Source: a virus
Direction: 5' to 3' (one strand)
DNA: 64,000 nt
UHGV virus genome: UHGV-1368191
Shown: one piece after another, positions 18,169 through 45,668 of the stretch
How positions within the stretch are numbered: the first letter of the stretch is position 1
Layout of the letters: each line of letters begins with the position of its first letter
The notes under the pieces: generated by a model
Told to the model about the DNA's origin: nothing
The model's database searches: none
The model's input: only the letters and a program-made list of their open reading frames with translations
Translations under genes and position numbers: made by a program

Positions 18169-18354
18169 TTGAATATGGTAATAACTAGAAGATTATATCG
18201 GATAGTACTAGAAAACTATCTTTCCTATCATGTGGCAGCTGACTCTATTGATGAAGCAATAAGTATTATGAGAAAATGGAGAAAGGACTGCAAGATTACT
18301 AGTGTAAGTAAAAGCAATGATGACGTAGTATTAACTAAAGAGGATGTACAATGA
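18169..18354 (+). CDS. hypothetical small protein
   Basis: 61-aa ORF with ATGA overlap into thyX. Confidence 0.3.
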   Translation: MNMVITRRLYRIVLENYLSYHVAADSIDEAISIMRKWRKDCKITSVSKSNDDVVLTKEDVQ

Positions 18355-23260: not shown

Positions 23261-23268
23261 TAATTTTG
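23261..23268 (+). promoter_or_regulatory. possible Bacteroidetes-type -7 promoter element (TAnnTTTG) upstream of the giant gene
   Basis: TAATTTTG lies between the terminator and the first ATG of the 3050-aa ORF (ATG at 23290). The ORF-track start at 23266 is a TTG. Confidence 0.2.
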
Positions 23269-29200: not shown

Positions 29201-32200
29201 TTCAGAACAGGCTACTTTCTATTATTAAAGGCAACCCTAAATATAATAGGGATTTGCTTAATGCCCTGGAAATAGTTGAAGTTAATGGAAGAAAGGTATT
29301 CAATGTTCCCTTTAATGATAAAATAACTTCTACTAAACTAGAGGAGCTACTTACCTCTATATTCAAGAATGGAATAGCTAAGCAATACATTAAGGGTGCT
29401 TCCTGTATATTGGTATCTAATTTTGGATTTACCAATGAGCTAGAGGTAGTAAGAAGGAGAGATGGTAGTATTGAAGCTGTAGAGTGTTATTTACCTGCAT
29501 ATAGTAGAAAGTTCTATGAGCCATTTTTAACAGAAGTGAAAAATAAAAAAGGTGTAACTATAGGATATAAAATAGACTATAATAAGTTAAAAGGTGCTGA
29601 TAAGAAACTTCTTGATTTTGTAGGATACAGAATACCTACTGAGGCTAAATACAGTATGATTCCCTTAAGAATAAAGGGATTTCTTCCTCAACAAAATGGT
29701 AGTGCTATAATGCTCCCTTCAGAGATTACTACTCTCAGTGGTTGTGACTTTGATGTTGACAAGCTGTTTATGATGCTTCCTGAGTTTAAAAGAGAGCAAA
29801 TATATGATGTAGACAGAGCTTGGAGAGACTTCTATAATGATCCTAGTAATAGTGATATTGTTAATGAAATTAATAAGAATATCACAGAGGGAGCTAAGAG
29901 AAAGAATATGTCTGAAAGAGACTTTCTACAGCTTGTTTATGATAATGGCTATAAGAAGTATGATCTTTCAGAAACAGCTCAAGAGAGATTTAGTGACTGG
30001 TTTAAAGGAAGAAAGAAGAACTACTTTGTCGAGGAGAAATTTGAGGTAATTAATTATGACCATAGCAAAGAACCAAAAGATAACAGTAGGGAACAGAGAA
30101 ATAATGAGATAATAAATATCGCTTTTCAAATCCTTACTAATAAAATGGTGGGAGAGGACTCACAAAGTCCTGGTAACTTTGATGTACTTAAACATGATGC
30201 TAGAGTCAGGGAAATCACCAGTAATATAAATTATGTTCACGAGTACATGAGAAGAAATAGAATCAAGAACTATGATGATTTTATATATGAGGTTCTTAAT
30301 GACTCCTTGGAGAATCTTACTGAATTTCTTAAGGAAGTAAAGGAAGAAAGAAATTCTCTTACTGTGGATACATTTATCTATTATCACAACCAAAATATGG
30401 TGGGTAAAGTATTAGTTGGAATCTATGCTAATAATACCACTATGCAAGCTAAATTCCAGGGAACTGGTCTAGCATTAAAAGATGGATTTGAGTTCACTAT
30501 AGATGGAAGGGTAATAAAGAGCTTATCTGATATTTACACAACTGAGAATGGTGCTAAGGTTAAGATATCAAAGAATTGTCAACAATTCTCAGCTGCCTCA
30601 GTTGATAATGTAAAGGACCCAGTTTTAGCTTTCTTAATGCAGAATAAGAACACCGCCAATACAGCTTGTTTTATGCTAAGAGCTGGAATGAGTATCCCTG
30701 AAATAGGAGCCTTCTTTAATATCCCCATTGTAAAACAATGTATAGAGGAAACAGGAGGACTTAGGGAGTTAAGTTCCTATATTTCCAATGTAGAAACATC
30801 TTTGGCTGAACTATTATCCATGAGAGAATATAAGGTTAAGCCTATAAATTCTACTACTTTAGTAGACATAATGCTCACCACACTGGAGTCTAGAGGTATA
30901 ACACCTGAAACTCCTATAGAAAGACAAATCCAAATAATAGAAAAAGAACTTCAATTAGCAAAGTTATTATTGAGAATATCTAAATATGGAGATGCTCTTG
31001 GGGAGACAGTACAGGCTTATAGAGCTGATTCTCCTAAGGCTGCTATAGGAAGAAGTGTTGCCATAGCTAAGATACAAACACTAAATATAGATAGGCTTAT
31101 AAGGAAGTCAAGACTCTCTGATTTTCCTCTTACTGGAATAGAGAATATAGTAAGGAATAATTATATTACCCCTGATATGACTATAGACCAAATGAGGGAA
31201 GCTCTTATGAATTCCAAGATGCCCATGCTTCAAGCATTCTACTCTTTAGGAATAGAATTTGGTGTTAAAAAACTGGCTGATTATTTTGCTACAGCTGGAG
31301 ATTATGCTAATCAAGTAATTGATTTCGTGAATACTCTTTCTATAAGACCTTTAAGAGAAAGAGATGTTCAAACCATCTATAATGCTCTTATACAATTTGC
31401 TCTTAGTGATACAGAGTTATTTGGGGAGAGCAGTGAGATGTCTTTAGAGGAAAAGAGAAATTATTACTTATCAGTATTTCCTAAGGAATTTACTAGGATT
31501 GTAAGTGAAAACCCTGATATAGCTAAGATACCTTTTATACAAAAAATCAGTAATAGTCCCTCTGGAATTATAATGAGGGATTCCTCAAGAAATAGTCACC
31601 AATTGATAGATTTATTAATGAATAGTGCTGATACATTACTATATATGGATAGTAATCCTGTAGCATGGAAATTGGCATTTCATCTATTCAATTATGCCTA
31701 TTTCAAAGAAGGACTTAATTATGGTCCCAGTAGCTTCTCTCAATATTTCAGTACTGTTTGGAAAACATCATTCCCAGAGTATATAGATACCCTTAGGGAG
31801 CTTAATACTTCAATGGGAGTCTCTGATAAATGGAGCAGGTTTATAACACAATACTATGCCAACAATCCAGTGATGGCTCCTACTATCGTTGTACCAAGAG
31901 ATTATTACTCAGAAGATAGGAAGATAGTAAGGATACCTAGTAAAGAAGTTTCCAATAGAAATTTAGTAGTTCCAACACCTGTTGAGTTCTTTTATGATCC
32001 CAATGAACTTACTGTGTATAGACTTAACACTGAATCTATGGAAAATGAAATTCTACAATATGATAGAATATCAACAACACCTGGTAACCTTTATGATGCT
32101 AATAAGGAGTCTAATGATATGGTAGCTGAAAATGAGAAATATCAAAAATCAGCTGAAAAGATGATACAAGCTGAGAAAGAAAGAAGAAATCCTGGTGTTC

Positions 32201-32418
32201 AAGGAGGACAAATTACAGGAAATAGTAATCCAGCTATAAACAATAATGAGGATATATCTTTATTAGGAGTTGATACTGGAACTATTGATGCTATATTGGG
32301 AGAACTGGATGCTGCCGTTGAGGCATCTGAAGAGTATAGTCCTGAAGAGGGATTAAAAGAAGAAGGGTTAAATCCATGTAAAAAAGGTAATGGTGACAAT
32401 GTAATAAAGGAGTTATAA
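23266..32418 (+). CDS. giant virion-packaged protein, putative virion RNA polymerase (two-barrel type) with N-terminal SLOG(YpsA-like) and NADAR domains
   Basis: 3050-aa ORF. 'GCDFDVDKLF' (nt 29746-29760) fits the DxDxD metal-binding motif of two-barrel RNAPs and crAss-like vRNAPs. 'IRSGGQTGVDEAGIIAAQRLG' (nt ~25072-25130) fits SLOG/YpsA. 'TFAKMLTNPGNDLTVVYKGKTFRNAEHAYQTWK...RGIEYLNRSWHEVTGDEYWEKQGNFMKALIQAY' (nt ~25290-25680) fits NADAR. The start codon is uncertain: the first in-frame ATG after the TTG is at 23290, 'MLRVY...'. Confidence 0.55.
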   Translation: MQKLILLNMLRVYCTVVTPEINEMAEKIGLHPQIVNNLICVWQTLNNKPNQYPSEQELQELIKNRESYNDAFKYAIPYYTRSEEKGYGVHFDENDNLVINPYPKDTQLKDALNTLPLGVPEDLKSEITTFKELYIVQLYAERLLQTDPNYDIQDNPNAYIAAVTASIRMLMEGKKRHLYDTTSTPVPTNPQVESEQKTTKTPTIEKSIEYTLPGQGKQTYTIKGTHIYNKDGKEVFKEDSVHRNRIFANLAVKEGRAVVVEHGDTSYVVNNKGHIISVATGKMMQWGEENSNRKAILEEARKKFSSKISTQQSQKTVTSTLDTRTISNKTASFGVTISENIMGNYSEWLKDNPNGIVAYRVDKEHFNTPQLVQRGIIGNPFNWQKYGEGKSLQMFYDWLTTGNNFGEESAAEEYRKAIINKILSSPVGTPILYYKEKYQPSHATMIGYLINHKDLLNTGIVSSTEITTSKGTDYPSRTRENADWSDITMALFTVRSNGETLTAQAAGSKDRKQIGNRTIRNTKDKYIEAELSDDLNNQATIIANNLEKQIKEKGLPTKGIKLNIAGNGIYSFSEGVSQEYLNDLVSSVIQILQQKGITISKIRSGGQTGVDEAGIIAAQRLGIPNEVHTTADFKFRGRDGQDIRGEERFKARFINQQSTEGDNNRRDIQIKGENISSKGSTFAKMLTNPGNDLTVVYKGKTFRNAEHAYQTWKSGEFDEAAFNSTAFKPVGKKPVNKSSNFQTMVEILTAKLEQHPELIQGINDRRGIEYLNRSWHEVTGDEYWEKQGNFMKALIQAYNRVNSDQNTQQEEGTPEDLPEIGIPEALASQVQVNKESPRAILSRQMSPQEITRREDMIARDFSDIINDALSDMQEGLRNDIENEKDPLRRLQLSQKLNALEDPVKGRRAAITELGIEEILNRMKEEYQEWIDMDSSEIDSYLGKGKADYVKQAYQKVLDNFDLLFDEASSMIEQKEHLRITRGDTKEVQNTEDQEQVLEEELGDDDSGNRVSGNEGYTFKIRFVDPFTSIRAETRKVLSDIKQIDTEGNVATDDLGRTIYVREDFAHSALLASLNWMDNPNDFSVKNADGTYSLPALENAAMIYPWINQVIEELEADPNLISVFYNDFRKDYISYWMQRDGKVFPMNSPIDYEGTFRGIQRNYESGSPQDDDSIFDVNLKISKANIRKARTLLTNVRKSLSKAVYSEDMETIVPSIQKLLNIIGFSSTNLNLTQLKDISNVGLANTILDSIARVLDNSDTLQEGQHYVDTVRDPLNIIAKLVGKVTELDAQVTFRQGKNSYPSYAVPNYIETVFKKLLKKDDDQRNEYLQNEFGKYAWFKNKNGEWNNEWLRLIEEDPNVRDMVTLVNMFNMEGVDYENWSPSLITTGFMNMYFAIDENPDLDTQYGYYNFPIFSDTKMATFVKFIKYTGDYRSKLIPLYRKLVNQELKRIRLVEDRAKKGIPPISNFDKRGKRFCFLPELNTLKLDFEGKEMTLLDIVRELNRRGNVKSIDAYIDSAINWTIDKLADDFISNHKEVVSDESLDKIKKATGVKSDEAAVDKIREYVWNQIFATSQMVQMVTTDLAYYASDTDFQKRFKEVYAAGTKLNTNSKYGRKTERTVYIRDNIVTSPTYIPLKEMFTKAYKEERITKMDLDSILYKFRNINSVDGQAYRSLSSYRSILDMLGRWTPKMEEAFDRLNKGNWDISDFDIIWQTIKPFVYGQVETPDGLGGLLRTPHQNKNSEFLLLATYQVLGTVLNNSPQLRGLNKFMETNNIDVVQFESAVKVGCSGVIDINVSPSKIKKASEDRFIEVNGEKYDVPDISGLNISKAFDQIKEYFDNRLERGSITQQEYNNIIDYLKPTETEVFNTLVENTRKKINDTDVLTKDNYNKTTVHEISYDDYMIAQPTPEHLFDVESIIGSQFRNLIYSDLPEDIEINLGDITIKGRDNVKRYYFSLMVENLLDSYKEVNEVFSSIETLQNRLLSIIKGNPKYNRDLLNALEIVEVNGRKVFNVPFNDKITSTKLEELLTSIFKNGIAKQYIKGASCILVSNFGFTNELEVVRRRDGSIEAVECYLPAYSRKFYEPFLTEVKNKKGVTIGYKIDYNKLKGADKKLLDFVGYRIPTEAKYSMIPLRIKGFLPQQNGSAIMLPSEITTLSGCDFDVDKLFMMLPEFKREQIYDVDRAWRDFYNDPSNSDIVNEINKNITEGAKRKNMSERDFLQLVYDNGYKKYDLSETAQERFSDWFKGRKKNYFVEEKFEVINYDHSKEPKDNSREQRNNEIINIAFQILTNKMVGEDSQSPGNFDVLKHDARVREITSNINYVHEYMRRNRIKNYDDFIYEVLNDSLENLTEFLKEVKEERNSLTVDTFIYYHNQNMVGKVLVGIYANNTTMQAKFQGTGLALKDGFEFTIDGRVIKSLSDIYTTENGAKVKISKNCQQFSAASVDNVKDPVLAFLMQNKNTANTACFMLRAGMSIPEIGAFFNIPIVKQCIEETGGLRELSSYISNVETSLAELLSMREYKVKPINSTTLVDIMLTTLESRGITPETPIERQIQIIEKELQLAKLLLRISKYGDALGETVQAYRADSPKAAIGRSVAIAKIQTLNIDRLIRKSRLSDFPLTGIENIVRNNYITPDMTIDQMREALMNSKMPMLQAFYSLGIEFGVKKLADYFATAGDYANQVIDFVNTLSIRPLRERDVQTIYNALIQFALSDTELFGESSEMSLEEKRNYYLSVFPKEFTRIVSENPDIAKIPFIQKISNSPSGIIMRDSSRNSHQLIDLLMNSADTLLYMDSNPVAWKLAFHLFNYAYFKEGLNYGPSSFSQYFSTVWKTSFPEYIDTLRELNTSMGVSDKWSRFITQYYANNPVMAPTIVVPRDYYSEDRKIVRIPSKEVSNRNLVVPTPVEFFYDPNELTVYRLNTESMENEILQYDRISTTPGNLYDANKESNDMVAENEKYQKSAEKMIQAEKERRNPGVQGGQITGNSNPAINNNEDISLLGVDTGTIDAILGELDAAVEASEEYSPEEGLKEEGLNPCKKGNGDNVIKEL

Positions 32419-32419
32419 T

Positions 32420-35400
32420 ATGGCAAATGCATGTGTATTTACCCCTAAAAAGGGGATTAAGACTTTCCAAAAATTAAAAAATGAATTTGGGTATGATGAA
32501 GCTTGGAAGATTTATGGCATAGCCATGAATCCCAAGTTCCAGAATGATTATAAGGACTCTCTCAGCTTTGATGCTGAGGGAGTTCCTTTCTTTGATTCTC
32601 TTATCCAGAATAACTATATAATGAAGGTAGCTGGAAGTAATATAAGAAAGTACCTAGGAAAAAATTTACCTAAAAGGGATGATTCAATAGAGAATTTTAA
32701 CTTAACTCTAGAGGATGCTAAAACTTTCAATGACAGGAGTCCCTATAATAAAAATTTTGTGGCTGTAGTAGGATATGATGATGAAGGAAGAATAGCTATA
32801 CAGTTACTTGGCAGAACTGAAGAGAATGAGAAAAAATTTGCTAATCAGTATGCCACTTATAAACTTAATATGAGGCTTGCTGAAATATTGAAGTCTCTGG
32901 GGGTGAGTGTAGGATTACTTCAAGAAATAGAGCAGTCTTCAGGAAGAGTTGGAGTTACTGATTTCTCTGTAGCTAAGTTATTGGCAACTGATTCAATCTC
33001 CATGATTAGAGTGGCTAATAACATGGAAGGAGCTAAAGCATTAAGTGAGGAGTTTGCCCACTTGATTATAGGAGCTATGAGGGGAAATCCATTAATACAA
33101 AGAAATATAAATACCCTAGCCAATGAGGATTCCTTAAGAGAAATATTAGGAGATGATTACCAAGATGTCTACGATTTCTATGAGGGTGATATGGAATTAA
33201 TGGCTGAAGAGGCTTTAGGACATATTTTGCAGGAAAAACTTCTTGAGAGTGTAACCTCTAATGATATTCAAGGAAGGTTGATAAATCAAGTACAGAGGAA
33301 GTTTAAGAGAATAAAAGAATCTGAAATAGTGGATGCTATCCATGAAGCTGAATCTAGTATGAGTACAATTGCCAAGGGTATTCTAGGAGGTAATTTAACT
33401 CTTTCAAAAAAAGATATTATCAATTCCCAAAGAGATGTTCAGTTTAATGCCCTAAGTGAACAAGTAGAAAGAAATATAAAAATCCTGAAGGATGCTATTG
33501 CAGTAGAATCTAAAAGGTATAAGATTATTAGGGGTAATGAGGACTCAAAGAAGTATGCTGAAAGTATAGTAAATGCCTTAGAGCGTAATATGAACACAGA
33601 TACAGCTTTAGGAGTTCTTACTTATGCAAGGGAAGCATTATCCTCCTTAAAAGTGGCAAGTAATACATTAAGCACTCTCAATACTATGTCACCTGAGGAT
33701 AAGTTTAAACTTCTTATAGGCATAAAGAGCACTATTCAGTCCTATAGTCAATTCATAGATAATCTTAATGATTTAGCTCTTGATGACAAGAATGACGCTG
33801 ATTACACAAAAGACTTTGTGGTTACTGATCATAAGGGAGACAAGGAAGTAGTTAACATGAAGTCCACACTTACTGAGCTTAATTCATTATATAAGTTAAT
33901 TGGGAGAGACTGGCTAAGAATAGCCCTGCCTTCATTTGCTGAATACTTGAAACCTGTATTGGGTGAGAAAATAACTATAGAAATGGGTTCCAGGAAAGGA
34001 GTTTCCATAACTATAGAAGAGCTTCTTAAATCCTCTGAAAGTGATATTTCATACTTAGATAGATGGCTTGATAGTATGGGTAACTCCTCTGATATCTTAT
34101 TAAGGGCATTTGATAAAATATATAAGAATGCCATGGATAAAGCCAGGCTCCAGAGTATAAAGGATTTTAGGAGAATACAGGCTCTTAGAATGGAAGCTGA
34201 ATCCTATGGGATTACTACCTTTGATTGGATGTTTGAAAGAGATAGAGAAGGTAATTTTACAGGTAATTATGTGAGTGAGGTAAACTCATACCAATACTAT
34301 CAAGATAGAGATAGATTTGAGGAAGAACTTAGTGAAAAATATGGTAAGAACCCAAAAGGTGATAACTTAAAAGCTAAGTTAGCTGAGAGGGAAAGATGGC
34401 ATGAAGAGCATAGTGATTTAACTATTCTGGGCACTAGAATCCCCAAGGAATCAGTATATAGAAATGAGGACTTTTATAAGTTATCTGATAAGCAACAACT
34501 CATTAGGAAAAAATTTCTTGAGATAAAAACCCAAATGGATAAACAATATCCTTCTACTAGAGTATCAGAGCTTAAAGCTATTCAACTAAGAAAGGATGGA
34601 GTACAAAGGTTTATTGATTCAGGAAAAGACCCTTCTACTATATTCTCTAATATAAAGGAACATTTAGCTGATGAATTCTTGGAAAGAACTGATGATGATA
34701 CAATATTTGGAGGAAGAACTGGCCTTACTGATTTTGCGGGAAAGGAATTTATGACCTTACCTGTATTATATACCAATAGATTAGAGAATCCCAATGAATT
34801 GAGCACTGATATATTTGGGTCATTGATGGCTTATACAGCTGCTTCAAATAACTACAGGGAAATGGATAGAATCATTGACCCCCTAGAGACTGGAAGAACC
34901 CTGATTAAGGAAAACAGAAAGGTTAAAACAACTAGAGGAGGGATGAACCTAGTGGAGAAGTTTAAGGCATTAGGAAAAAATTTTCAGAATGAGGCTATTG
35001 AGAGTGGAGGCTCTTATATAGAAGATAGACTTGATGACTTCTTTGCCTCCCAAATATATCATAAGTACTTGGAAGATTCAGGAATCTGGGAAGTATTTGG
35101 TAAAAAAATAAATAAAAATAAGGTTGTTTCAGCTTTAATGAAAGGGTCATCAATGGCTCAATTAGGGTTCAACTATTTAACTAATCTAGCCAATGTGACT
35201 ACAGGTGTAGCTATGCAGAATATAGAAGCCGCTGCTGGAGAGTTCTTTAATGCTAAAGAGCTTGCTAAGGCTGACTCTATATATGTTAAACTGATTCCTG
35301 GTAATATAGCAGAGTTCAATAGTAGAACAAAAACCAATAGACTTTCACTGTTTAATGAGCTGTTTAATATAAGACAAGACTTTGATGATGTCTCACACCA

Positions 35401-36379
35401 TGTGATGAGAAAGAGTGCATTGGCTAGGATATTTTCATCTGAAATAGCATATATTGGACAGGGAGCTGGAGACCATTGGCTATACATGAGAACAGCTATA
35501 GCTATGGCTTTAAGAGAGAGAGTGAATGTTCCTGGGAAGGGAGAAATGTCATTATGGGAAGCTCTCCAGATAGAAGATACATTTGATGGCAATGATAAGA
35601 TAAAAGAAATGAAACTCCCTGAGGGAACTACTGGAGCTGATGGTAAACCATTTGATATTGGTAAATTTGGAAGAAAAATAGCTCATGTTAACCAGTCATT
35701 ATTTGGTATTTATAATACTGAGGATAGAAATGCTGCACAGAGAGTTATTATGGGTAGGCTATTACTGCAATATAGGAATTGGATGAAACCCCAATTCAAT
35801 AGAAGATTTCAAAGAGGTCAATTTAACCTTGATACACAGAGCTGGGAAGAAGGTTATTATAGAACCTCTTATAGAATCCTAAGGGGGTTAATAAGGGGAC
35901 AATATCAGCTAGGAGCTGTGTGGCAAGAACTTAAACCTGAAGAAAGGGCTAATGTTAAAAGAGCTATAACTGAAATGCTTCAATTATGTATAGTAGTACT
36001 CTTGGCTGAATTTATTAAGTGGCCTGATGATAAGGATAGACCTTGGGCAATTAAATTAGCTGAATATACATCTAGGAGACTTGAACATGAATTGGGAACT
36101 CTAGCACCTTCCCCAATGATGCTTCAAGAGATGCTTAAGACTGTTAAATCCCCAGCTGCTGTTATAACACAAGTGCAAAACCTTATCAATTTATTCTCAA
36201 GTCTTACTGACCCAAGAGATTGGAATGATGAAATAGAATCAGGTAAATATAAAGGAATGAGTACTTTAGAGAAGAATCTACTTAAATCTGGGCTACCAGG
36301 CTTTGCGCAGTTTAGGCAACTAGATAGATTGATATATGACATGGATAACTCCATTAATTATTATGCTAGACCATATTAA
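32420..36379 (+). CDS. large virion (cargo/ejected) protein
   Basis: 1319-aa ORF immediately after the 3050-aa gene and before the convergent terminator. Helix-rich, no catalytic motif recognised. Confidence 0.45.
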   Translation: MANACVFTPKKGIKTFQKLKNEFGYDEAWKIYGIAMNPKFQNDYKDSLSFDAEGVPFFDSLIQNNYIMKVAGSNIRKYLGKNLPKRDDSIENFNLTLEDAKTFNDRSPYNKNFVAVVGYDDEGRIAIQLLGRTEENEKKFANQYATYKLNMRLAEILKSLGVSVGLLQEIEQSSGRVGVTDFSVAKLLATDSISMIRVANNMEGAKALSEEFAHLIIGAMRGNPLIQRNINTLANEDSLREILGDDYQDVYDFYEGDMELMAEEALGHILQEKLLESVTSNDIQGRLINQVQRKFKRIKESEIVDAIHEAESSMSTIAKGILGGNLTLSKKDIINSQRDVQFNALSEQVERNIKILKDAIAVESKRYKIIRGNEDSKKYAESIVNALERNMNTDTALGVLTYAREALSSLKVASNTLSTLNTMSPEDKFKLLIGIKSTIQSYSQFIDNLNDLALDDKNDADYTKDFVVTDHKGDKEVVNMKSTLTELNSLYKLIGRDWLRIALPSFAEYLKPVLGEKITIEMGSRKGVSITIEELLKSSESDISYLDRWLDSMGNSSDILLRAFDKIYKNAMDKARLQSIKDFRRIQALRMEAESYGITTFDWMFERDREGNFTGNYVSEVNSYQYYQDRDRFEEELSEKYGKNPKGDNLKAKLAERERWHEEHSDLTILGTRIPKESVYRNEDFYKLSDKQQLIRKKFLEIKTQMDKQYPSTRVSELKAIQLRKDGVQRFIDSGKDPSTIFSNIKEHLADEFLERTDDDTIFGGRTGLTDFAGKEFMTLPVLYTNRLENPNELSTDIFGSLMAYTAASNNYREMDRIIDPLETGRTLIKENRKVKTTRGGMNLVEKFKALGKNFQNEAIESGGSYIEDRLDDFFASQIYHKYLEDSGIWEVFGKKINKNKVVSALMKGSSMAQLGFNYLTNLANVTTGVAMQNIEAAAGEFFNAKELAKADSIYVKLIPGNIAEFNSRTKTNRLSLFNELFNIRQDFDDVSHHVMRKSALARIFSSEIAYIGQGAGDHWLYMRTAIAMALRERVNVPGKGEMSLWEALQIEDTFDGNDKIKEMKLPEGTTGADGKPFDIGKFGRKIAHVNQSLFGIYNTEDRNAAQRVIMGRLLLQYRNWMKPQFNRRFQRGQFNLDTQSWEEGYYRTSYRILRGLIRGQYQLGAVWQELKPEERANVKRAITEMLQLCIVVLLAEFIKWPDDKDRPWAIKLAEYTSRRLEHELGTLAPSPMMLQEMLKTVKSPAAVITQVQNLINLFSSLTDPRDWNDEIESGKYKGMSTLEKNLLKSGLPGFAQFRQLDRLIYDMDNSINYYARPY

Positions 36380-36432: not shown

Positions 36433-39400
36433 CTAGTACATACAATGGAATAAGATTTCTTTTTCAAGAATAGTCATATTACTGTATTCTTTTGGAGATA
36501 TCTTTCTTTCAGATAAATAATCTTTCTGTTCTTTAGATAGTTTATTATAAGAAAGTTTAATCTCATGATATTGTTTTATCTCTATGGTGTCTATAGCTTC
36601 TGTGTTAACATCTCTGTCAATATATTTCCCTTTTAATATATCAGTATAAACTCTGTCAAGATAGAACCAATTACTATTAAAATGATTTAATAGTGCTTTT
36701 AATCTAGACCATAGATTCTTCAGTCTGCCTACAAAAGTCTCTTCATTCTGCATATATCTTCTAAAGTCTTCAGCCATTCTTTCTTCTAGCTCTATAGGAC
36801 TCAAATTACCCCATTGCCTTTTAGCTGATTTAAAGGCATTCTCAAGCTCTTGGTCAGTCATTAGAGTATTGAATACAAAATGGAAGGCCTCATGATAAGC
36901 AGTTCCTCTAGCCGCGTTTTTATAGAGTGTTATAGCTCCATCTTTAAATTGTCCCCAAGCTTTTCCTCCAGGAATTTTTATTAGAGTACCTACTATTCTG
37001 ATTCTATCTTCTTCACTTAATTGAGGAAGTAACTCCCCTATCACCTCTAATTCCCTACCTATTAGAGATTCACTCTCTCCAATGTACTTTCTATATCTAA
37101 TATCATTATCAGTTCTAGAGAATGTTCCAATATTATCTGTAGCTGATTTAATTTGGTTAGGATTAAATACTACTAATTCTACACCATTCTTACCTCTTAT
37201 ATCATTCATGTTAAAAGCACTTCTAAAAACATTCATATTAGAAAATCCTATAGCACCATCATTGTTAGAAGTACTATGTTTATCTATGCCCTTTCTTGTG
37301 TAAATATCTCCAGATTTATATCCAGAAGGTTTATCAACAATAACAGGATTTTTAATATTAAGATATACAGGTATATCGTGAGATTGTGAAAGTTTTTCTA
37401 CAATTTTTCCTACTATAGTAGAATTATCTCTCCAAGGTTTAAACCACAATCCTTCTCCTCTTTTAGATTTATTTAAATCAAAAGTACTAAAATCAGCTCT
37501 TGTACTATGATAAACAACTAAAGGTTCACCATTTTCATCTACTACTTTTGATACATTTCTATCTCCACTGTTTATATCGTCTGCTTGTGGTAATTTATCG
37601 TTAAGTATTCTATAAGTAGTGTGATTCCAATGTCCTACTTTAGGTTTTTCAGATACCACCTCAGCAATTCCATCTTTAACTAAAGATTTCCATAAAGCAT
37701 CTTCGGCATCAGAATTAGATCTATCAGAATATAAAATTTTACCTTCTGATTTGGCAATATTAGCAAGAGCTAAATGAGCTTTTTTTCCATATCCTTTTCC
37801 TCTATATTCTTCTTCTATTTCTGTGGCAGCTCCTATAGATCCTCCCATTCTAATTTTATCTTTAGTTTCAATAACAGGAATTTCTCCTATATATTTATCA
37901 CCTAAAAATATAACTCTTTTACCTCCATCAGGAGCCATATCAGCATCAAATAATGCTTCACTTACAGTAACTCCTTGGTATGTAGCAGATGTAATACTAT
38001 TAGGAATATCTTGACTTTCTCTAAATCTAGAAGAACGGGCAACTCTCTCCCAATTACCAAACCATTTCTTAAATGCTTTAGTTCTCACTTGAGCATATTG
38101 TTTAGGTGTAAGGTTTGATGGTCTACTATTAGGAGCTAGGAGTCTACCTTGAAAATCTCTAGGGGCTTTATCTAGAATAGATTGTTCTTCCTTAGTTAGA
38201 TTAGAAGTGCTAACTTCTCTATTCTTAGGTCTAAGTTGTTCAGCAACAAGGTTATTCAGTTCCTCATCAGACATATTAGGGATAATCTTAGCATCTAAGT
38301 ACTGAGCAAGGGTTTTCAGTATAGGAGTTTTTAGTTTACTGAGACCTTGTATATTATCATCATTTAGTCTGTCTATTCTTGCTTGCCATTTTTTAGGCTT
38401 GAAAACAGCTTTCTTTTTTAAGGTTTCCCTAATAGAAGCTACATCTTGCCTAGGCTCTGAAGTATCAGGTTTATTTTCCTCAGCTTGAGTACTTTGTTCA
38501 GAAGGTTGAGGAGTCGCTTTCTTAAAGTAGTTATCTACATCTATAATAGGTAATGCTATATTAGGTACTTTATTTACTCCTATAACAGTATCATCATTTC
38601 CATAAACAATGGTAAAGGGAACTATAGCTACACCTTCAGTCTTTTTACCAAACCTATCATATAGTAGCTTAGCATAGGAAGATACTTGATAGGTATGGTA
38701 CTCTTTAGTGGACATTGTTTGCCCCCAAGCAGAATTCACTCCTTCATAGCGAAATCCAGCAAAAGGACCCACAGAAGTCTTTACATCATAAATATAGTAG
38801 TTGCCCTTATTATCTATGAACAGTAAATCAACTTCTCCCGCTATTCTTCTCCCATCCAGATATTTTTGATAGAGAACTATATTATTGGCAAATACTGACC
38901 ACTTATGATCATTTAACCACTTATCTAAGGACTTAAGATACTCTATGATACTATTATAGGCCTTATCTGACATAAAATCAGGCTTAGTGGTCTTTCCTGT
39001 ATTAAAGAAGTCTCTTACTATAGTATCAACAGCACTCCCAGTTCTTAGTGCTCTTTGGCTGTTAGCAGTACCAGTATTATTTGAATTAGAAGGAAGTACA
39101 TTATGCACCCTTTGGTACTTATGATACTTGCCATCACTCTCTTTTATATAGTAATAGTTACTATCAGTTCTATTCCTATCTATATTTGATTGATCTGGTA
39201 TTATAGTACTTCTTACAAAGTTTCTCTCCCTACTGGCTTTTACCTCATCTTCAGCTTCCTTTGGAGCATCTTGGATAGATTTAGCTCCTTCCTTTTTCCC
39301 TTTTATTATGGGGTCTATGGTATAGAAATCATTAACTGTATGCAGGGTCCACTTTTCAAGATTGGTTGTAGCTAATTCACCTATAAGACTATTATAATCT

Positions 39401-42400
39401 TGCCCATTGAATTGAGTGTTGATATACTTTCTGGATATCTGGAAAGGTATATTAAGTCCTCCTAAAGCCTTAACTATATCAGTGGATATATCCTCATTCT
39501 GTATAACAGTTCCTCTATAAATAGTAGACCAAGCAGTATCTGTAGAGGAGACTTTTACCCTGAAGTTTACCTGATAATTATTGCCTACCTCTTTTACATC
39601 CAAAAAGATATCACTAACAGCAAGTAGATCCTTAAGTCCTCTTTTCCACTCTTTCTGTGCCTCTTCAGTAAGTAGACTTTTAGGGTCATTCAATTTTTGT
39701 AGATGGGCTACTATTATCTTATATAGACTAGAAGAGGCTACATCACTACTGAAAGTAGGCATAGTAAAGGGAACAGGTACCCACCTTCTTCTTGGGTCAG
39801 AAGTTTCTATAAGTAAATAAGGCTGCCCTGCCAATGCACTCTCAGGACTTACTATTGATTGGTCATCTTCTGTTCTTCCTTGAGACCTTCTTCTTCCAGG
39901 GGTCATTATCATCTTGGCATCAGGGGAGGAAGTCAATGCTATTCCAAGCTTGAAAGGTACTCCATGAGCTATTTCATTAAGAGTACTCCTTTCATTCTTA
40001 GCAGAGTATAAAGGCCTTCCTATATAGGGTCTACTGATAGTTGACTCAGCATTGGGATAAATAACTAAATCTCCATCCACTTTTTCCCTATTCTCATTAT
40101 AGTAAGTGATAACTTCATTATAAAATTCAGCCAACCCTGTGTAGCTCCCAAATGTAGCTGTGTCACTAGGATTAGGTAAGTCAAATAGGATATTACCATC
40201 CTCATTTACCACTAAGAGAACAGGTACTCTCTCTTTTGAGTTTGCATAAATCTTATCAGAAAGACTTTTTGAGATAGCGAATCTTACCTTTTGTCCTACT
40301 TTTATTTCATTATTTCTTATTCTTGTGAACACTCCAGAAGTTCTAAGAAAATCATAGATAGTCTTGAGAATAGCTTGCTTCTTTTTATCCTTTACTTGCT
40401 CATAATAAGGGTCATTATTCTCTGTATTCCTATGAATAGGATATTCAGTAGTACCACTTTTCCAATAACTCTTATCCTGCATTTGAGTATCACTTATTTG
40501 AGTGTTTTGGCTAGCGGCTACTAAATCAATGTTTGTGGTATTTGGGGTAGGAGTTTCCACTTCTTCTCCAGTATCCTTTTCTTCTTTAGTATTACCCTCC
40601 TTATTAACTGTGGGAGGAGCTTCAACTGGGTCTTTGCTTTTAGTACTATCCAGAGTTCTTACTACTTCTGGAGCACCATTTCCCTTTTCAGGTAGGTTCT
40701 TCAGTCTCTCTAGATCCTCTACTACTTCCTTAGTTATCTCAGATAGTACATTTTTGATTTCATCAAGTCTTTGTTGTCTTGATTCATTATATGCTTTTTT
40801 TGCCTTCTCTATATCCTCAGGAGTACTATTTGGATCATTCATTACACTAAGTAATTGTTGTTCATCAACTGTAGGAAGAAGAGAATCTGGGTCATTAAAT
40901 GCTTCAGTATCAAGGTCAATTATATCAGAAGCTACTTCAGCAGATGACGTAGCTCTGTCTAGCATTGCATCTATAGAGGAGAGTATATCATCATCAATAA
41001 CACGCTCTTTAGCTTTCTCTTTTGCTGTATCTCTAGTTTTCTTGATATCTCTAGCTGTGTTTACCTTCTGTTTTCTATCTATTTCTTTTTTCCTTTCAGG
41101 ATCAAGATTTTCTTGTTCAGCATCAGTTAAATCTTCACTTGTAAAGTCAAATTCACTAGCATCTAAGTCCACTTTTCCATTATCAGAATCCTCAACAAGT
41201 TCCTGTACTGATTTATTATCTACATTAGAATTTTCAACCTCTTGTTGGGACTCCTGTTCAGCTTTTTTCCTAGCCTCATCTACTCTCCCAGGCTCTTTCA
41301 TATATTTAGCGAAAGTAATCCCAAATTCTCGTGAATCATTAAGAAGACTAATAGCATCTAGAATATCATTCTCAAATCCTAGGTTACGGTTAATAAGTTC
41401 ATCAACGTTTTTCTTAGTGGATTCCTTATCATGCCCTAAAGCTATATCCAGTATTACATCTCTCCAGTGTTCATTAGTATTACTTGTTTCTATAGTTACA
41501 GTATTATCCCCATTGGGTGTAATAGAAACTCCATTGCCTAATGTCTTTTGTAGGGATTCAACTGTTTCTCCCTTATCAAGAGTAATAGTAAAAGAGAGAG
41601 GAAGGATAGCTTTATCCATTATATTATTAGCTCTTTTTCTAGCAGCTTTTCCTAAATAGTGTAAATAAGCTAGATTACCCTCCTGGTCACTGGTAAGTTT
41701 ACCTCCAGAGACACTATTTACATATTGTACTGACTTAAGATATTCATTAACTCTATCCTTCAGTTTCTTTCCATTGGATTCCAGTTCTTTCCTGATTTCA
41801 TCATTACTTTTGACCCTATTCCCATGGCTATCAACAAATAATCCTATTTTCTTTTCCTCCCCGACAACATTATTAAACTCTCCCATAATTTCACCTATCT
41901 GGTTAAGAGCTTCAGTGGCTTCAGCTTCTTTACCTTCTTCAATAGCCTTCTCAGCTATCTGTTGCAAGGAAGCTACTCTTCTTTTTAAAGTATTTTTTTG
42001 ATTTTCAGTATCCTGTTCCTTAGTAATAGTAACAGTATTCCTACTAACAATGTTGTCTATATCCTCATCAGTTAAGTTTTGAGTAGAGGCATCTATAAAA
42101 GTAAGAAAGTCATCAACAGTCCCTGATCTGACAGCTAAATCAAGATCTTGTACAAATTGCTTCTCCTCAGCGTCTTTATACTGTTTTATATCATCATTTG
42201 CCACTCCCTCATCCATATCAGTTTGAAAATATGAATGAGCTACAGCACTGTCAAATCTATTCCAAAATTTAGGATCTTTATACCTAGTATTTAGGGCTTC
42301 ATTGAGCTTAGTGGCAGCATCAATCTTTTCTTTCATTTCCCTAAGGTTTTGGAAAGAACCTCCTTCCCAAGAAAAGTATCTTCTTGGGTCATATTTTCTT

Positions 42401-43887
42401 TTGGTTTTATCTTGGTTAAATGCCTTAGTGGGCATAGGCATTCCTATAGCCCCTGTAAGACCTCCTACAAAAAATTGTTCCCATTGATCATAGTCTCCCC
42501 AAGAATCAAGAAATCCTTTTCCAATAGCTGTCAATGCAGACATAGTTTCCTGCTGAGAACCTGGATTCATTCTAGCTCTCCAGTAGTCATTGGGGTCTTC
42601 TCTATCATAAGCATATCCTGATAAAGAAGATGCCCATTGCTGGTTCATCTCTTCAGAACCCTCAGATAGTATAGGTTTAAAGAATGCTTTGGTTTTTTGC
42701 CATTTTGCATTCTTCAAGGTGTGTTCCAACTGAGTTTTCAATTCACCAGTTCTGGCCTCTTGGAACATCTTCCTGGCTTTATTTTTTATATCACTTATAC
42801 CATTAAGGAGGTCAGCTCCACCTGACTTAGCAGAAGCTTCAGCCATTTTTCTGGCATTACTGAAAGATTTAGAGAAACCTTTACCAAGAGTAAAGAAGTT
42901 ACCAAGTGTAAGAATGGGCATATTAAGTGCCATGTCTATATTACCAGCACTTCTGGCATCTTGAAGAATCTGTTGTTTACCTGCTATTCTTTTGGCTTCT
43001 ATATCATTGAGAGTGCTTTGGTATGTCATAATATCACCAGTCTCTCTATATCTAGCATAAGCTTCTTCTCTCTGCCTATCAAGTGTATCATCAAGCCTTT
43101 GATTATTAAGGTCAACTAGAGATTCCATAGTTTGCTTAGCTTCTATAGCTCCTTCTCCAGCAGCACTAAACATGGAACCAAGTATAGCTGTACCTATTTT
43201 GGAGGTTTTAGTGGCATTAGAAACAAGGTTTAATGCCTTTGCAGCCAGTCCCAATCCACCAGTGAAAATACTACCACTGGCAGCAGCTCCAAGCATAAAT
43301 CCTACATTCTTGATAACATCATCTCCCCAGAAGGAGGCAGAAGTTAAATTAGTCAAACTAAGCCACGGGGCATTCTGTTGTTCTTTACTTTGGTAAATCT
43401 TAAAGTTGTCCTCCATGAAATCCTCTACCTCACTGAGTCCTCTTGTCAGCTCATTATCCCATAGTCCTGACCATCTGCCTTCATCAATAGCTGTATAGAT
43501 ACCTACAGGAATATTAGCTATTCCACTGACTATAGTGGTAGCAGCTGTACCAAGCATTTTTGCTAGGGCATTACCCAATGCGTCTAAAGTGGACTGATTT
43601 TGGTATCTGCCCTCATTCATGGCATCATAATCATCCAGTCCAGTATTTAAGGTATCATATTTTGAAGTTCCCCAACTGGCTAATGGGTCATCTAATTCTC
43701 TATGTTGTGGGGAAAATAATGCAGCATCTGTGGCATTTTCCCAACCAACATTTCCAGTAGCCTCTGAAGCTCTTACTGCCCTACTATATTGTAGTGCCCT
43801 TTGTATATCTTGTTCTTCTTTAGCTGATATTCCCTTTAATCCTTTAAGGCCTACAGGACCTGTTTTAGTTATATCTTGTTCTGCCAT
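36433..43887 (-). CDS. giant multidomain virion protein with RecB-like nuclease, GNAT-like, PARP-like ART-like and HExxH motifs
   Basis: 2484-aa ORF. 'GEVDLLFIDNKGNYYIYDVKTS...YHTYQVSSYAKL' (PD-(D/E)xK plus QhxxY, nt ~38700-38950). 'YRGKGYGKKAHLALANIA' (GNAT motif A-like, nt ~37800). 'LVVYHSTRADFSTF...GEGLWFKP...NGVELVVFNPNQI' parallels PARP 'LLWHGSRTTNFAGI...GKGIYFAD...LLYNEYIVYDIAQV' (nt ~37150-37530). 'AYHEAFHFV' HExxH (nt ~36880). Confidence 0.5.
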   Translation of the reverse strand: MAEQDITKTGPVGLKGLKGISAKEEQDIQRALQYSRAVRASEATGNVGWENATDAALFSPQHRELDDPLASWGTSKYDTLNTGLDDYDAMNEGRYQNQSTLDALGNALAKMLGTAATTIVSGIANIPVGIYTAIDEGRWSGLWDNELTRGLSEVEDFMEDNFKIYQSKEQQNAPWLSLTNLTSASFWGDDVIKNVGFMLGAAASGSIFTGGLGLAAKALNLVSNATKTSKIGTAILGSMFSAAGEGAIEAKQTMESLVDLNNQRLDDTLDRQREEAYARYRETGDIMTYQSTLNDIEAKRIAGKQQILQDARSAGNIDMALNMPILTLGNFFTLGKGFSKSFSNARKMAEASAKSGGADLLNGISDIKNKARKMFQEARTGELKTQLEHTLKNAKWQKTKAFFKPILSEGSEEMNQQWASSLSGYAYDREDPNDYWRARMNPGSQQETMSALTAIGKGFLDSWGDYDQWEQFFVGGLTGAIGMPMPTKAFNQDKTKRKYDPRRYFSWEGGSFQNLREMKEKIDAATKLNEALNTRYKDPKFWNRFDSAVAHSYFQTDMDEGVANDDIKQYKDAEEKQFVQDLDLAVRSGTVDDFLTFIDASTQNLTDEDIDNIVSRNTVTITKEQDTENQKNTLKRRVASLQQIAEKAIEEGKEAEATEALNQIGEIMGEFNNVVGEEKKIGLFVDSHGNRVKSNDEIRKELESNGKKLKDRVNEYLKSVQYVNSVSGGKLTSDQEGNLAYLHYLGKAARKRANNIMDKAILPLSFTITLDKGETVESLQKTLGNGVSITPNGDNTVTIETSNTNEHWRDVILDIALGHDKESTKKNVDELINRNLGFENDILDAISLLNDSREFGITFAKYMKEPGRVDEARKKAEQESQQEVENSNVDNKSVQELVEDSDNGKVDLDASEFDFTSEDLTDAEQENLDPERKKEIDRKQKVNTARDIKKTRDTAKEKAKERVIDDDILSSIDAMLDRATSSAEVASDIIDLDTEAFNDPDSLLPTVDEQQLLSVMNDPNSTPEDIEKAKKAYNESRQQRLDEIKNVLSEITKEVVEDLERLKNLPEKGNGAPEVVRTLDSTKSKDPVEAPPTVNKEGNTKEEKDTGEEVETPTPNTTNIDLVAASQNTQISDTQMQDKSYWKSGTTEYPIHRNTENNDPYYEQVKDKKKQAILKTIYDFLRTSGVFTRIRNNEIKVGQKVRFAISKSLSDKIYANSKERVPVLLVVNEDGNILFDLPNPSDTATFGSYTGLAEFYNEVITYYNENREKVDGDLVIYPNAESTISRPYIGRPLYSAKNERSTLNEIAHGVPFKLGIALTSSPDAKMIMTPGRRRSQGRTEDDQSIVSPESALAGQPYLLIETSDPRRRWVPVPFTMPTFSSDVASSSLYKIIVAHLQKLNDPKSLLTEEAQKEWKRGLKDLLAVSDIFLDVKEVGNNYQVNFRVKVSSTDTAWSTIYRGTVIQNEDISTDIVKALGGLNIPFQISRKYINTQFNGQDYNSLIGELATTNLEKWTLHTVNDFYTIDPIIKGKKEGAKSIQDAPKEAEDEVKASRERNFVRSTIIPDQSNIDRNRTDSNYYYIKESDGKYHKYQRVHNVLPSNSNNTGTANSQRALRTGSAVDTIVRDFFNTGKTTKPDFMSDKAYNSIIEYLKSLDKWLNDHKWSVFANNIVLYQKYLDGRRIAGEVDLLFIDNKGNYYIYDVKTSVGPFAGFRYEGVNSAWGQTMSTKEYHTYQVSSYAKLLYDRFGKKTEGVAIVPFTIVYGNDDTVIGVNKVPNIALPIIDVDNYFKKATPQPSEQSTQAEENKPDTSEPRQDVASIRETLKKKAVFKPKKWQARIDRLNDDNIQGLSKLKTPILKTLAQYLDAKIIPNMSDEELNNLVAEQLRPKNREVSTSNLTKEEQSILDKAPRDFQGRLLAPNSRPSNLTPKQYAQVRTKAFKKWFGNWERVARSSRFRESQDIPNSITSATYQGVTVSEALFDADMAPDGGKRVIFLGDKYIGEIPVIETKDKIRMGGSIGAATEIEEEYRGKGYGKKAHLALANIAKSEGKILYSDRSNSDAEDALWKSLVKDGIAEVVSEKPKVGHWNHTTYRILNDKLPQADDINSGDRNVSKVVDENGEPLVVYHSTRADFSTFDLNKSKRGEGLWFKPWRDNSTIVGKIVEKLSQSHDIPVYLNIKNPVIVDKPSGYKSGDIYTRKGIDKHSTSNNDGAIGFSNMNVFRSAFNMNDIRGKNGVELVVFNPNQIKSATDNIGTFSRTDNDIRYRKYIGESESLIGRELEVIGELLPQLSEEDRIRIVGTLIKIPGGKAWGQFKDGAITLYKNAARGTAYHEAFHFVFNTLMTDQELENAFKSAKRQWGNLSPIELEERMAEDFRRYMQNEETFVGRLKNLWSRLKALLNHFNSNWFYLDRVYTDILKGKYIDRDVNTEAIDTIEIKQYHEIKLSYNKLSKEQKDYLSERKISPKEYSNMTILEKEILFHCMY

Positions 43888-43889
43888 GA

Positions 43890-45668
43890 TTATTGTTTTG
43901 AAGTTTTAAATGTAGGGATACCATATTTACTTCCCCTTTGAATATTCAACTCATTAATTAGTATAGCCCCTAGATTTTCAGATGCTTCTTTGGCTTCTGC
44001 ACTACCTCTTCTGGCATATTCAGATAGTTGATTCCAAAGGATTGCATGTTCTCTGATTTTATCATCCAAACTGTTTATATTTCCAGTTGGCATAAAGTAC
44101 AATGTTTCACCATTATTGAATGTATATCCCATCTGGTTACCTTGAGTTGAGAAGTATCCGTTTACCGCTAAATTTCTAGCTTTTGCATCTTGTAGAACAG
44201 AGTTAAGAGTTCCAGCTTCCTTAACTAGTTTCCAACTTCCTCCAGTTTCATCCGCTTCTCCTATTTCCCAAACTTTTTGATTTGCTATATTAGAGAAAGC
44301 GTCAATAGTTGAATTTATATCACCTGAGGGTAAAAGTATGCCATTTACATAAGTTGAAGTTCCCGATTTAGCTACGAAGTTCTTCTCATTACTATATAAT
44401 TGTCCTAAGTTGAAAAGATCGGCTCCCTTAGTTGTTCCATTATAATATTCCTTAAGTACAGGAGTTACATTGGCATCATAGAATTGTCCCAGGATAGCTT
44501 TCTCCTCTTTAGTCCTTCCCTGTTTCATGAATTCACTCTTAGTCTTCAACCTGTTATTTTGGGAAGCAACAAATAGATTAGCGTGAACAATAGGTGTTTT
44601 ACTATATTGTACACCTCCAGCAGAAGGAGTACCTACTACCTTTGGCATTCCAGCTATCTGTAGGTTCTTACCAACATATTTACCTCCCTTTATAGTCATA
44701 AATCTACTCAATTTACTCAGCAATGGAGAAGTAGCATTCTTTTTTCCCGCTCCTACTGGTAACGATTTAGTCATAAATGGAAACTTCGGTGTATCAGGGT
44801 TTTCTTGGCTAGCAGCGGCTCTAGCTACTCTTTTCTGTGAGGCTTCTTGTGCAGCTAACCTAGCTCCAAAATCAGCATATTGGTTAAACTTATCTTGTCC
44901 AACAGCACTCCATAATCCCATTCCTATATAACTATCTACATCACTAGCATATTGATTTCTTATAGATTCAGGAACAGTACTATATACATTATCATATATA
45001 GCCCTTAATACTCTATTAGCTTTAGGGTCTCTAGGATTAGCATTAAAGGCGGCTATTTCAGAAGGAGACAATCCATAATGTTCCACGAAGCTATTGGTAT
45101 ATGCATCCAGTTTACCTCTACTTATTCCTCCTAGTCTCTTGGCTATTGCACTAGCTTGCGCAGCAGCTTGCTGTGTTATCAAAGCTCCTGAAGCTGTATC
45201 ACCATAACCATAGTTAGAGTCCTCTAGGAACCTATCCAAGCTAGTCTCTCTACTCCTTGTATTAAAATCTCTTTGATACATAAGAGTGGGATTGGCTAAT
45301 TTAGCCTTTCTCTGTTCTTCAGCAAGCTGATTTCTTCTTTCAATAGCATTCTTTATTGGTACTATCTCTGAAGCATATCTACTTCTCATATCCAGCATAC
45401 CTTGCCTAGAACCAGGAGTAAGGCCATTATTATATAAGTCATCAGCTTGCTTCCTTAAGCTCTCCTCATATCTTTTATACTGAGCATATGTTTCAGGGTC
45501 ATCAACCTCATCAGCCATAGAAGCAATAGCATTGGCCTGTATATTCATTTGATTATAGGCATCCTCAACATTGTGATATGCCTCACCATATATTTGATAT
45601 GGCTGTAAATATCTCTCAAAAGAGAATGGTTGGAATGTGCTATTTACAACTAGACTATAATTAGGCAT
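43890..45668 (-). CDS. virion structural protein (function unknown)
   Basis: 592-aa ORF in the structural gene block. Start overlaps the upstream gene's stop. Confidence 0.45.
   Translation of the reverse strand: MPNYSLVVNSTFQPFSFERYLQPYQIYGEAYHNVEDAYNQMNIQANAIASMADEVDDPETYAQYKRYEESLRKQADDLYNNGLTPGSRQGMLDMRSRYASEIVPIKNAIERRNQLAEEQRKAKLANPTLMYQRDFNTRSRETSLDRFLEDSNYGYGDTASGALITQQAAAQASAIAKRLGGISRGKLDAYTNSFVEHYGLSPSEIAAFNANPRDPKANRVLRAIYDNVYSTVPESIRNQYASDVDSYIGMGLWSAVGQDKFNQYADFGARLAAQEASQKRVARAAASQENPDTPKFPFMTKSLPVGAGKKNATSPLLSKLSRFMTIKGGKYVGKNLQIAGMPKVVGTPSAGGVQYSKTPIVHANLFVASQNNRLKTKSEFMKQGRTKEEKAILGQFYDANVTPVLKEYYNGTTKGADLFNLGQLYSNEKNFVAKSGTSTYVNGILLPSGDINSTIDAFSNIANQKVWEIGEADETGGSWKLVKEAGTLNSVLQDAKARNLAVNGYFSTQGNQMGYTFNNGETLYFMPTGNINSLDDKIREHAILWNQLSEYARRGSAEAKEASENLGAILINELNIQRGSKYGIPTFKTSKQ

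Follow-up and report, generated by a model that had tools for sequence, protein, structure and literature searches.

A probable crassvirus virion cargo protein with predicted ADP-ribosyltransferase, acyltransferase, nuclease and zincin domains

The locus and the 2484-aa protein

Crassviruses are the most abundant human gut phages. The DNA described here is a 64-kb window, that is, the whole stretch of 64,000 nucleotides (nt) that was analyzed, from the UHGV virus genome UHGV-1368191. It belongs to the genome of a crAss-like phage (about 35% GC), and megablast against GenBank phages returned no close genome. An intact open reading frame (ORF) at 36433..43887 on the minus strand encodes a protein of 2484 amino acids (aa), which is the subject of this report. 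The identical protein is present on 9 public metagenomic contigs of 50-200 kb. Its best relatives by tblastn are genes annotated 'putative RNA-polymerase subunit' in the crassviruses cr85_1 and cr128_1 and in Bacteroides phage crAss001, where the gene is gp47; the E-values are 4e-46 to 3e-63. Judged by homology, it is the crassvirus 'RNA polymerase (RNAP)-associated' virion cargo protein, an ortholog of crAss001 gp47 and phi14:2 gp65. Four enzyme-type domains are predicted in it: a RecB-type nuclease, a GNAT-fold acyltransferase, an ADP-ribosyltransferase (ART), and a zincin metallopeptidase. The GNAT and ART domains lie in a block that appears to be a mobile cassette. The coordinates given below for parts of this protein are all on the minus strand.

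Searches with the whole protein were largely uninformative. No match was found among PDB sequences (phmmer) or in NCBIfam, and by a Kyte-Doolittle scan the protein has no hydrophobic stretch strong enough for a transmembrane segment. In PHROGs only two families of unknown function were matched, over the ART. A preliminary description of this region, made from the letters and translations, had quoted eight motif strings from the protein, and the ORF and all eight strings were found where it had placed them. The motifs exceed chance expectation. The ART region matches a Pfam family with an E-value of 2e-21, HExxH occurs once against 0.02 expected from composition, and the nuclease and GNAT motifs are invariant among homologues.

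The predicted ADP-ribosyltransferase domain

The protein matches PF18760 (ART-PolyVal) at aa 2117-2256 (37120..37539), over model positions 1-140 of 140. The score of 77.7 bits (E 2e-21) is above the curated cut-off of 31.2. This supports the prediction of an ADP-ribosyltransferase of the ART-PolyVal family. Three strings mark the putative active site: VYHSTRADFSTF (aa 2125-2136) contains H2127, GEGLWFKP (aa 2144-2151) contains W2148, and GVELVVFNPNQI (aa 2235-2246) contains E2237. N2177 and the motif N-Q-I-K-S (aa 2244-2248) are further marks of the domain.

Conservation was examined in 28 non-redundant relatives with less than 90% identity. The strand-1 His (H2127, in VVYHS), which lies on a predicted strand, is kept in 26 of the 28. 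The position that corresponds to the PARP Tyr is aromatic in 26 of 28, with Trp in 13, Phe in 7, and Tyr in 6. The strand-5 position (E2237, in GVELVVF) is acidic in 16 of 28 (Glu in 14, Asp in 2) and Gln in 2. N2177 and NQIKS are invariant or nearly so. The strand-2 Tyr of PF18760 is replaced by W2148, so that the predicted active-site configuration is H-W-E and not H-Y-E. The preliminary description had proposed a triad-like H-Y-E pattern. Its His and Glu are present and its His is well conserved, as is the aromatic character of the middle position; Tyr itself is found in only 6 of 28 relatives, and the acidic residue in 16. The mixture of Trp, Phe, and Tyr across the family indicates that aromatic character is retained and Tyr is not.

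The Tyr counted as 'Y' in the H-Y-E triad of PARPs belongs to a 'YFA' motif (PMC7955679), and the pairing of GEGLWF with GKGIYF is therefore in the right register. The domain shares with the PARP and diphtheria-toxin H-Y-E ARTs the strand order 'hhYH(G/S)(S/T)', 'G-x-aromatic-F', 'E-h-V-V'. Similarity to PARP1 itself is remote. PARP1 has Tyr907 where Trp stands here, and the 2484-aa protein lacks the regulatory and helical domains of PARPs. ART-PolyVal was described by Iyer et al. as an H-Y-D family of the Tox-ART-HYD2 clade, related to PARPs and to the diphtheria and cholix toxins (PMC5512222). The domain in the window differs in having Glu where Asp was described and Trp at the Tyr position.

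In an AlphaFold model, the predicted strand order of the ART part fits an ART core, at a predicted local distance difference test (pLDDT) score of 40-86. No ART was obtained among the listed fold matches, because GNAT matches filled both fold-search result lists.

Relatives of this domain appear to be overlooked in public records. Of 50,697 GenBank phage records, 18 have a BLAST-detectable relative of this ART domain and none of the 18 is annotated as an ART, which amounts to an annotation gap. The labels on these records are 'hypothetical protein', 'putative RNA-polymerase subunit', 'methyltransferase', 'MutT/NUDIX hydrolase', and 'DarB-like antirestriction protein'.

The predicted GNAT, nuclease and zincin domains

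A putative GNAT-fold acyltransferase domain precedes the ART at aa ~1965-2095 (37603..37995). Its motif A region, YRGKGYGKKAHLALANIA (aa 2028-2045), contains the (Q/R)xxGx(G/A) pattern as an acetyl-CoA (coenzyme A) loop, R2029-G-K-G2032-Y-G2034, and RGKGxGK is invariant in 8 homologues. The segment was modelled by AlphaFold with pLDDT 80-95. Its top fold matches include the protein N-acetyltransferases RimI, RimL, and HP0935, which supports a GNAT fold. Pfam Acetyltransf_1 was matched below threshold in 6 of 8 members (13.5-17.6 bits against 20.7, best E 1.1e-4). Together, motif conservation and model support the prediction of a GNAT acyltransferase. The closest relatives share 85-93% identity over the GNAT segment and only ~60% over the adjoining ART. 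With the intact acetyl-CoA loop, this points to purifying selection on the GNAT.

A real ART could act on something other than host protein: on nucleic acid, as DarT and Tpt1 do, or on a small molecule, as Arr does. It could also simply hydrolyze nicotinamide adenine dinucleotide (NAD+). For the GNAT too, a substrate other than protein is conceivable, such as the DNA bases modified by phage Mu Mom. Nothing in the sequence separates these substrate classes. In the fold comparison, dozens of GNATs that act on proteins or small molecules score at least as well as Mom, and the authors who defined the ART family prefer protein targets by analogy with T4 Alt. These alternatives are considered unlikely.

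The RecB-type nuclease of the PD-(D/E)xK superfamily is predicted at aa ~1600-1812 (38452..39090). It contains the strings EVDLLFID (aa 1685-1692), IYDVKTS (aa 1699-1705), and QVSSY (aa 1734-1738). D1621, E1685-V-D1687, D1701-V-K1703, and Q1734/Y1738 are invariant in 6 homologues that share 33-37% identity, crAss001 gp47 included. By its motifs, this layout is that of the RecB/Cas4 type. All 6 members match Pfam PDDEXK_1 below the cut-off (16.9 bits against 22, best E 1.2e-4), and a precomputed PF12705 match is present on the ortholog in another phage, L003. A Foldseek search with the nuclease part placed AdnA of AdnAB (probability 0.97, E 0.027), SduA, Cas4 SSO0001, and HincII on top, every one of them a PD-(D/E)xK nuclease, from a model with a mean pLDDT of 51. 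A homologue search with an ART-deleted construct found only 4 proteins, which accounts for the shallow nuclease and zincin alignments and the poor AlphaFold2 model.

Downstream of the ART, a zincin is predicted at aa ~2278-2440 (36568..37056). It appears to be a gluzincin of the lethal-factor/PPEP-1 kind. HEAFH (aa 2332-2336, nt 36880-36894) is the sole HExxH in the protein. In 10 homologues with 31-40% identity, YHEAFH, E2368, E2369, A2372, and F2375 are invariant and E2373 is nearly so. As in PPEP-1/Zmp1 and anthrax lethal factor (M34-like gluzincins), HExxH is followed ~32 residues on by EExxAExF with the third zinc ligand. A profile of the region aligns both motifs with PPEP-1/Zmp1 (EEFFAESF, third zinc ligand). 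The match is a weak one (E ~0.1), and the model gives low confidence for the beta-sheet part that lies upstream. HEAFH lies on a predicted helix, residues 389-404 of the model. No zincin was among the fold matches of this nuclease-zincin model, and the zincin fold is unconfirmed because the model is poor.

Relatives have been named accordingly by others. An ortholog in GenBank MH552500.1 is labelled 'putative RNAP associated protein fused to zincin protease', and the zincin of this crassvirus protein family has been described (bioRxiv 10.1101/2020.03.07.982082). A lethal-factor-like 'MPTase' fused to virion RNAP proteins was reported by Iyer et al. (PMC5512222), which agrees with the zincin here. 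A lethal-factor-like zincin peptidase is thus a supported prediction for aa ~2278-2440.

The preliminary description was accurate for these three domains. It had put a GNAT motif A ~95 aa upstream of the ART, which was found 99 aa before the ART His. A RecB-type motif set expected ~780 aa from the C-terminus lies ~800 aa from it. The zincin-type HEAFH said to be downstream of the ART proved to be part of an invariant HExxH and EExxAExF pair.

Between the ART and the zincin, at aa ~2263-2268 (~37063..37080), is a junction motif D-I-R-Y-R-(K/E). It is conserved in the gp47-type contexts of the window, P0003, P0012, P0016, and cr85_1 and is a candidate zincin processing site.

The leader and the mobile cassette

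The GNAT and ART domains are preceded by a conserved module of ~50 aa, called here the leader, at aa ~1895-1948 (38044..38205), which contains LLAPNSRPSNLTPKQYAQVRTKAFKKWFGNWE and lies outside every Pfam model. Its motif LLAPNGKPSNLTEKQYAQVRTKAFKxWFGDWE precedes ART-PolyVal in every case among the homologues (P0001-P0120). It is 55-78% identical across ~100 homologues and is modelled with pLDDT 85-93. In one homologue (P0019) it occurs twice, each copy ahead of an ART. Leader, GNAT, and ART together form the cassette, aa 1890-2270 (37078..38220).

The location of the cassette varies among crassviruses. In crAss001 gp47 the nuclease, zincin, and tail are present without leader, GNAT, or ART, while the protein in the window has the cassette between nuclease and zincin. 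In cr85_1 and the mouse crassvirus ctcc615, leader and ART are C-terminal, after the zincin. About 100 ART-PolyVal proteins in the databases, of ~1.5 thousand aa, are gp49 orthologs with leader and ART inserted at about residue 200. The gp49-like protein of the window itself has neither. In L003 (ENA ERZ28436089, 101 kb, 10001-12109), a relative with TAG recoded to Gln, leader, GNAT, and ART form a separate ORF of 702 aa that adjoins a 1599-aa PDDEXK_1 protein; 4, 24, and 43 in-frame TAG codons are read as Gln in three adjacent large genes there.

The content of the cassette varies as well. Alternative inserts between leader and ART include a P-loop segment 'GHPAIGKTT' (P0024), an HD-like segment (P0022), and a second HExxH, 'GIHELLHAI' (P0008). 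An 846-aa protein from ENA (P0013) has leader, GNAT, ART-PolyVal, and NADAR in one chain according to precomputed Pfam matches. With this domain set, a single polypeptide would both write ADP-ribose marks and, putatively, erase them.

The cassette also differs in composition from the gene that carries it. Its GC content at third codon positions (GC3) is 0.09-0.17, compared with 0.24-0.27 elsewhere in the gene. Of 365 windows of 160 codons over the 36 ORFs of the 64 kb (mean 0.266, standard deviation 0.057), those in the cassette have the lowest GC3. The only comparably low region in the 64 kb is a LAGLIDADG-bearing insertion in thyX. Absence or relocation in orthologs, together with this foreign composition, points to a horizontally acquired mobile effector cassette. 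These observations indicate that the block of leader, GNAT, and ART is accessory and not part of the conserved gp47 scaffold, and it looks recently acquired.

Since crAss001 gp47 works without the cassette, the cassette domains could be catalytically dead or structural passengers. The 2484-aa protein would then serve only in structure or ejection and as a partner of RNAP, as crAss001 gp47 does. The replacement of the canonical Tyr by Trp, and an acidic strand-5 residue in only 16 of 28 relatives, would fit such a decay. Trp is, however, the commonest residue at this site in the family and is therefore not a lesion. The 2484-aa protein retains His and an aromatic residue at their places, as well as Asn2177, Glu2237, and the invariant NQIKS, and the GNAT has a perfect acetyl-CoA loop and the signs of purifying selection given above. 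Inert passengers are considered very improbable, the least probable of the alternatives weighed here, and active enzymes in an acquired cassette are preferred.

A wider idea can be drawn from the range of contexts, and it is put forward tentatively, as something that may well prove wrong. The unit of leader, variable enzyme, and ART could be an actively exchanged effector cassette that hops among the ejected 'RNAP-associated' proteins of crassviruses (gp47, gp49, or a separate ORF), much like the swappable tips of polymorphic toxins. The partner enzyme would differ by lineage (GNAT, P-loop protein, HD-like segment, second zincin, or NADAR). Shuffling would diversify a pre-packaged, NAD+-dependent arsenal for host takeover or anti-defense, and the ~50-aa leader would serve as a handle for recombination, processing, or targeting.

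Neighboring genes and probable virion packaging

The genes around the 2484-aa gene are those expected of a crassvirus cargo region. Directly downstream is a crAss_CARGO2 gene (43890..45668, minus strand), followed by crAss_CARG1 (45661..48378, minus strand) and the crassvirus muzzle protein gene (48470..53332, minus strand), all identified by Pfam. Convergent with the 2484-aa gene, on the plus strand, are a gp49-like gene (32420..36379) and a gp50-like gene for a 3050-aa virion RNAP protein (23266..32418). Homology, together with synteny with cargo-1, cargo-2, muzzle, and the convergent gp49 and gp50 genes, marks the 2484-aa gene as gp47-type. The protein shares with crAss001 gp47 and phi14:2 gp65 the N-terminal region, nuclease, zincin, tail, and gene neighborhood. 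The conserved tail, at aa ~2441-2484 (36436..36567) with the pattern ...E(K/R)E..(L/F)(R/H)C.., matches the C-terminal ends of crAss001 gp47 and P0121 in alignment. A 385-aa ORF with a GTG start (40502..41659, plus strand) lies antisense within the 2484-aa gene and is probably spurious.

Mass spectrometry of crAss001 virions detected gp45, gp46, gp47, gp49, and gp50, and these proteins were described as cargo that is stored in the capsid and ejected via the tail (PMC10172136). From orthology and synteny with crAss001 gp47, we infer that the 2484-aa protein is packaged as well. The proposal of a packaged and injected multi-enzyme effector, made in the preliminary description, gains support in this way.

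The enzymes could also act earlier, in the producing cell or in the capsid, for example in maturation by the zincin or in modification of phage protein or DNA before packaging. Iyer et al. name autoprocessing before packaging or in the head as one option for the MPTase, and DdrB of phage P1 is processed before packaging. The capsid interior is without a supply of NAD+ and acetyl-CoA, orthologous proteins are full-size in the cargo set, and the published model is one of ejection (PMC10172136). Action before ejection is accordingly given a small chance, and action in the host after ejection is favored.

NADAR had been claimed in the neighboring giant gene, and with it an ADP-ribosylation axis. 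The first of these statements fails. NADAR (Pfam PF08719) was not found in the 3050-, 1319-, 1620-, 905-, or 592-aa neighbors, and phmmer against the PDB likewise returned nothing. Instead, the gp50-like protein has a cpYpsA (SLOG) match at aa 465-516 (nt 24658..24813), with 27.4 bits against a cut-off of 26.2 (first 1000 aa scanned). A DUF4326-like 'GNPF' stretch was suspected by eye in the same protein, and Pfam gave no support for it. The axis survives as a broader hypothesis. In another crassvirus, L004, the gp50 ortholog (L004:1689-10004) carries NADAR and DUF7831 at the equivalent end and the gp49 ortholog carries ART-PolyVal. SLOG and NADAR have both been assigned to a viral NAD+/ADP-ribose network (Iyer et al., 2022; PMC9503650). 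NADAR in the L004 gp50 ortholog, and its fusion to the cassette in P0013, make an NAD/ADP-ribose theme in crassvirus cargo proteins plausible from their domain content.

Several other genes of the window carry inserted or notable domains. A 641-aa ThyX ORF (18351..20276, plus strand) has Thy1 at aa 468-635 and a LAGLIDADG_3 insertion at aa 266-297, which probably represents an intein or a homing endonuclease. Within the large subunit of ribonucleotide reductase (9971..12862, plus strand) lies an intein (Intein_splicing, aa 274-490), which carries an HNH_3 endonuclease. A 164-aa ORF (17127..17621, plus strand) matches HicA_toxin at aa 7-43 with 29.2 bits against a cut-off of 27.

Comparison with known systems

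Phage T4 Alt is an ART that is packed in the head, injected with the DNA, and modifies host RNAP and other proteins. The preliminary description had likened the 2484-aa protein to injected proteins of the T4 Alt type, though much larger. Alt is a useful functional model for the possible role of the ART here; as a class it does not fit. It is an R-S-E (VIP2-like) ART of ~76 kDa with a single enzymatic function and no family-level homology, whereas the window encodes an H-type ART in a 2484-aa multi-enzyme chain. No Pfam match of the 2484-aa protein to an Alt-type family was found, and its active-site strand has His and not Arg.

The right class is that of the polyvalent proteins of Iyer, Burroughs, Anand, de Souza, and Aravind (2017), for which ART-PolyVal, a GNAT next to it, and a zincin peptidase fused to virion RNAP proteins have been reported (PMC5512222; see also PMC9503650). 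The prototype of ART-PolyVal is the virion RNAP protein of Roseovarius Plymouth podovirus 1 (PMC5512222). The protein in the window fits this class, with four enzyme-type domains in one chain of 2484 aa that is encoded within the cargo and muzzle gene block. It shares with the published examples a giant virion-associated multi-enzyme chain, the same ART family, the GNAT neighbor, the lethal-factor-like zincin, and the association with virion RNAP. It differs in that the scaffold is a crassvirus gp47 and not an N4-like RNAP, and in that a RecB-type nuclease is also in the chain.

Much of this is already in print. ART-PolyVal in virion polyvalent proteins, the adjacent GNAT, the RNAP-associated zincin fusion, and the crassvirus cargo set were published from 2017 to 2023. 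The papers searched appear to contain no description of the cassette as part of gp47 and gp49 orthologs of crassviruses, of its transfer between the two, or of the foreign composition seen here.

Proposed function and significance

It is likely that the 2484-aa protein is a polyvalent virion cargo protein, in which a conserved gp47 scaffold carries a mobile cassette of leader, GNAT, and ART and acts on the host after ejection. A number of points weigh against this. The canonical Tyr of the ART is Trp, and its model is of moderate confidence, with no independent match to a solved ART among the listed fold matches. An ART profile gave only chance matches against PDB sequences and no solved relative. 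In hhalign, the His and aromatic motifs align with those of the PARP1 catalytic fragment, for which the sequence was checked against the PDB, and the match is weak (probability 5%, P 0.008). The GNAT and nuclease scores fall below the Pfam cut-offs, the nuclease-zincin part is poorly modelled (mean pLDDT 51), and no Pfam zincin family matched the zincin region at better than E 0.1. The crAss001 gp47 that underlies the packaging argument is an ortholog with ~29% identity. The searched literature gave no experimental ADP-ribose transfer by any ART-PolyVal member, nor any laboratory study of such a domain.

Sequence comparison here established the domain layout, the conserved residues, the gene order, and the mobility of the cassette; packaging and ejection, processing by the zincin, catalysis, and targets are deduced from orthologs and from what is published on polyvalent proteins. 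The following sequence of events can be proposed for the polyvalent cargo protein. The scaffold would consist of the N-terminal and central helical region, the RecB-type nuclease, the lethal-factor-like zincin, and the C-terminal tail. The cassette, with its H-W-E ART-PolyVal, would have been acquired between nuclease and zincin. By orthology, the protein would be packed in the cargo zone of the capsid alongside the gp49- and gp50-like virion RNAP proteins. Upon infection it would enter the Bacteroidales cell by being threaded through the tail, before the DNA or together with it, and would then refold. The zincin may split the polyprotein into modules. The ART would ADP-ribosylate host macromolecules with host NAD+, the GNAT would acylate targets with acyl-CoA, and the nuclease would act on DNA. 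Together, ART and GNAT would redirect or disarm host functions prior to any phage gene expression.

If the ART and GNAT are active, NAD+- and acyl-CoA-dependent modifying enzymes would reach Bacteroidales cells before phage genes are expressed. A cassette that varies among lineages, as this one does, could help explain differences in host range or defense evasion.

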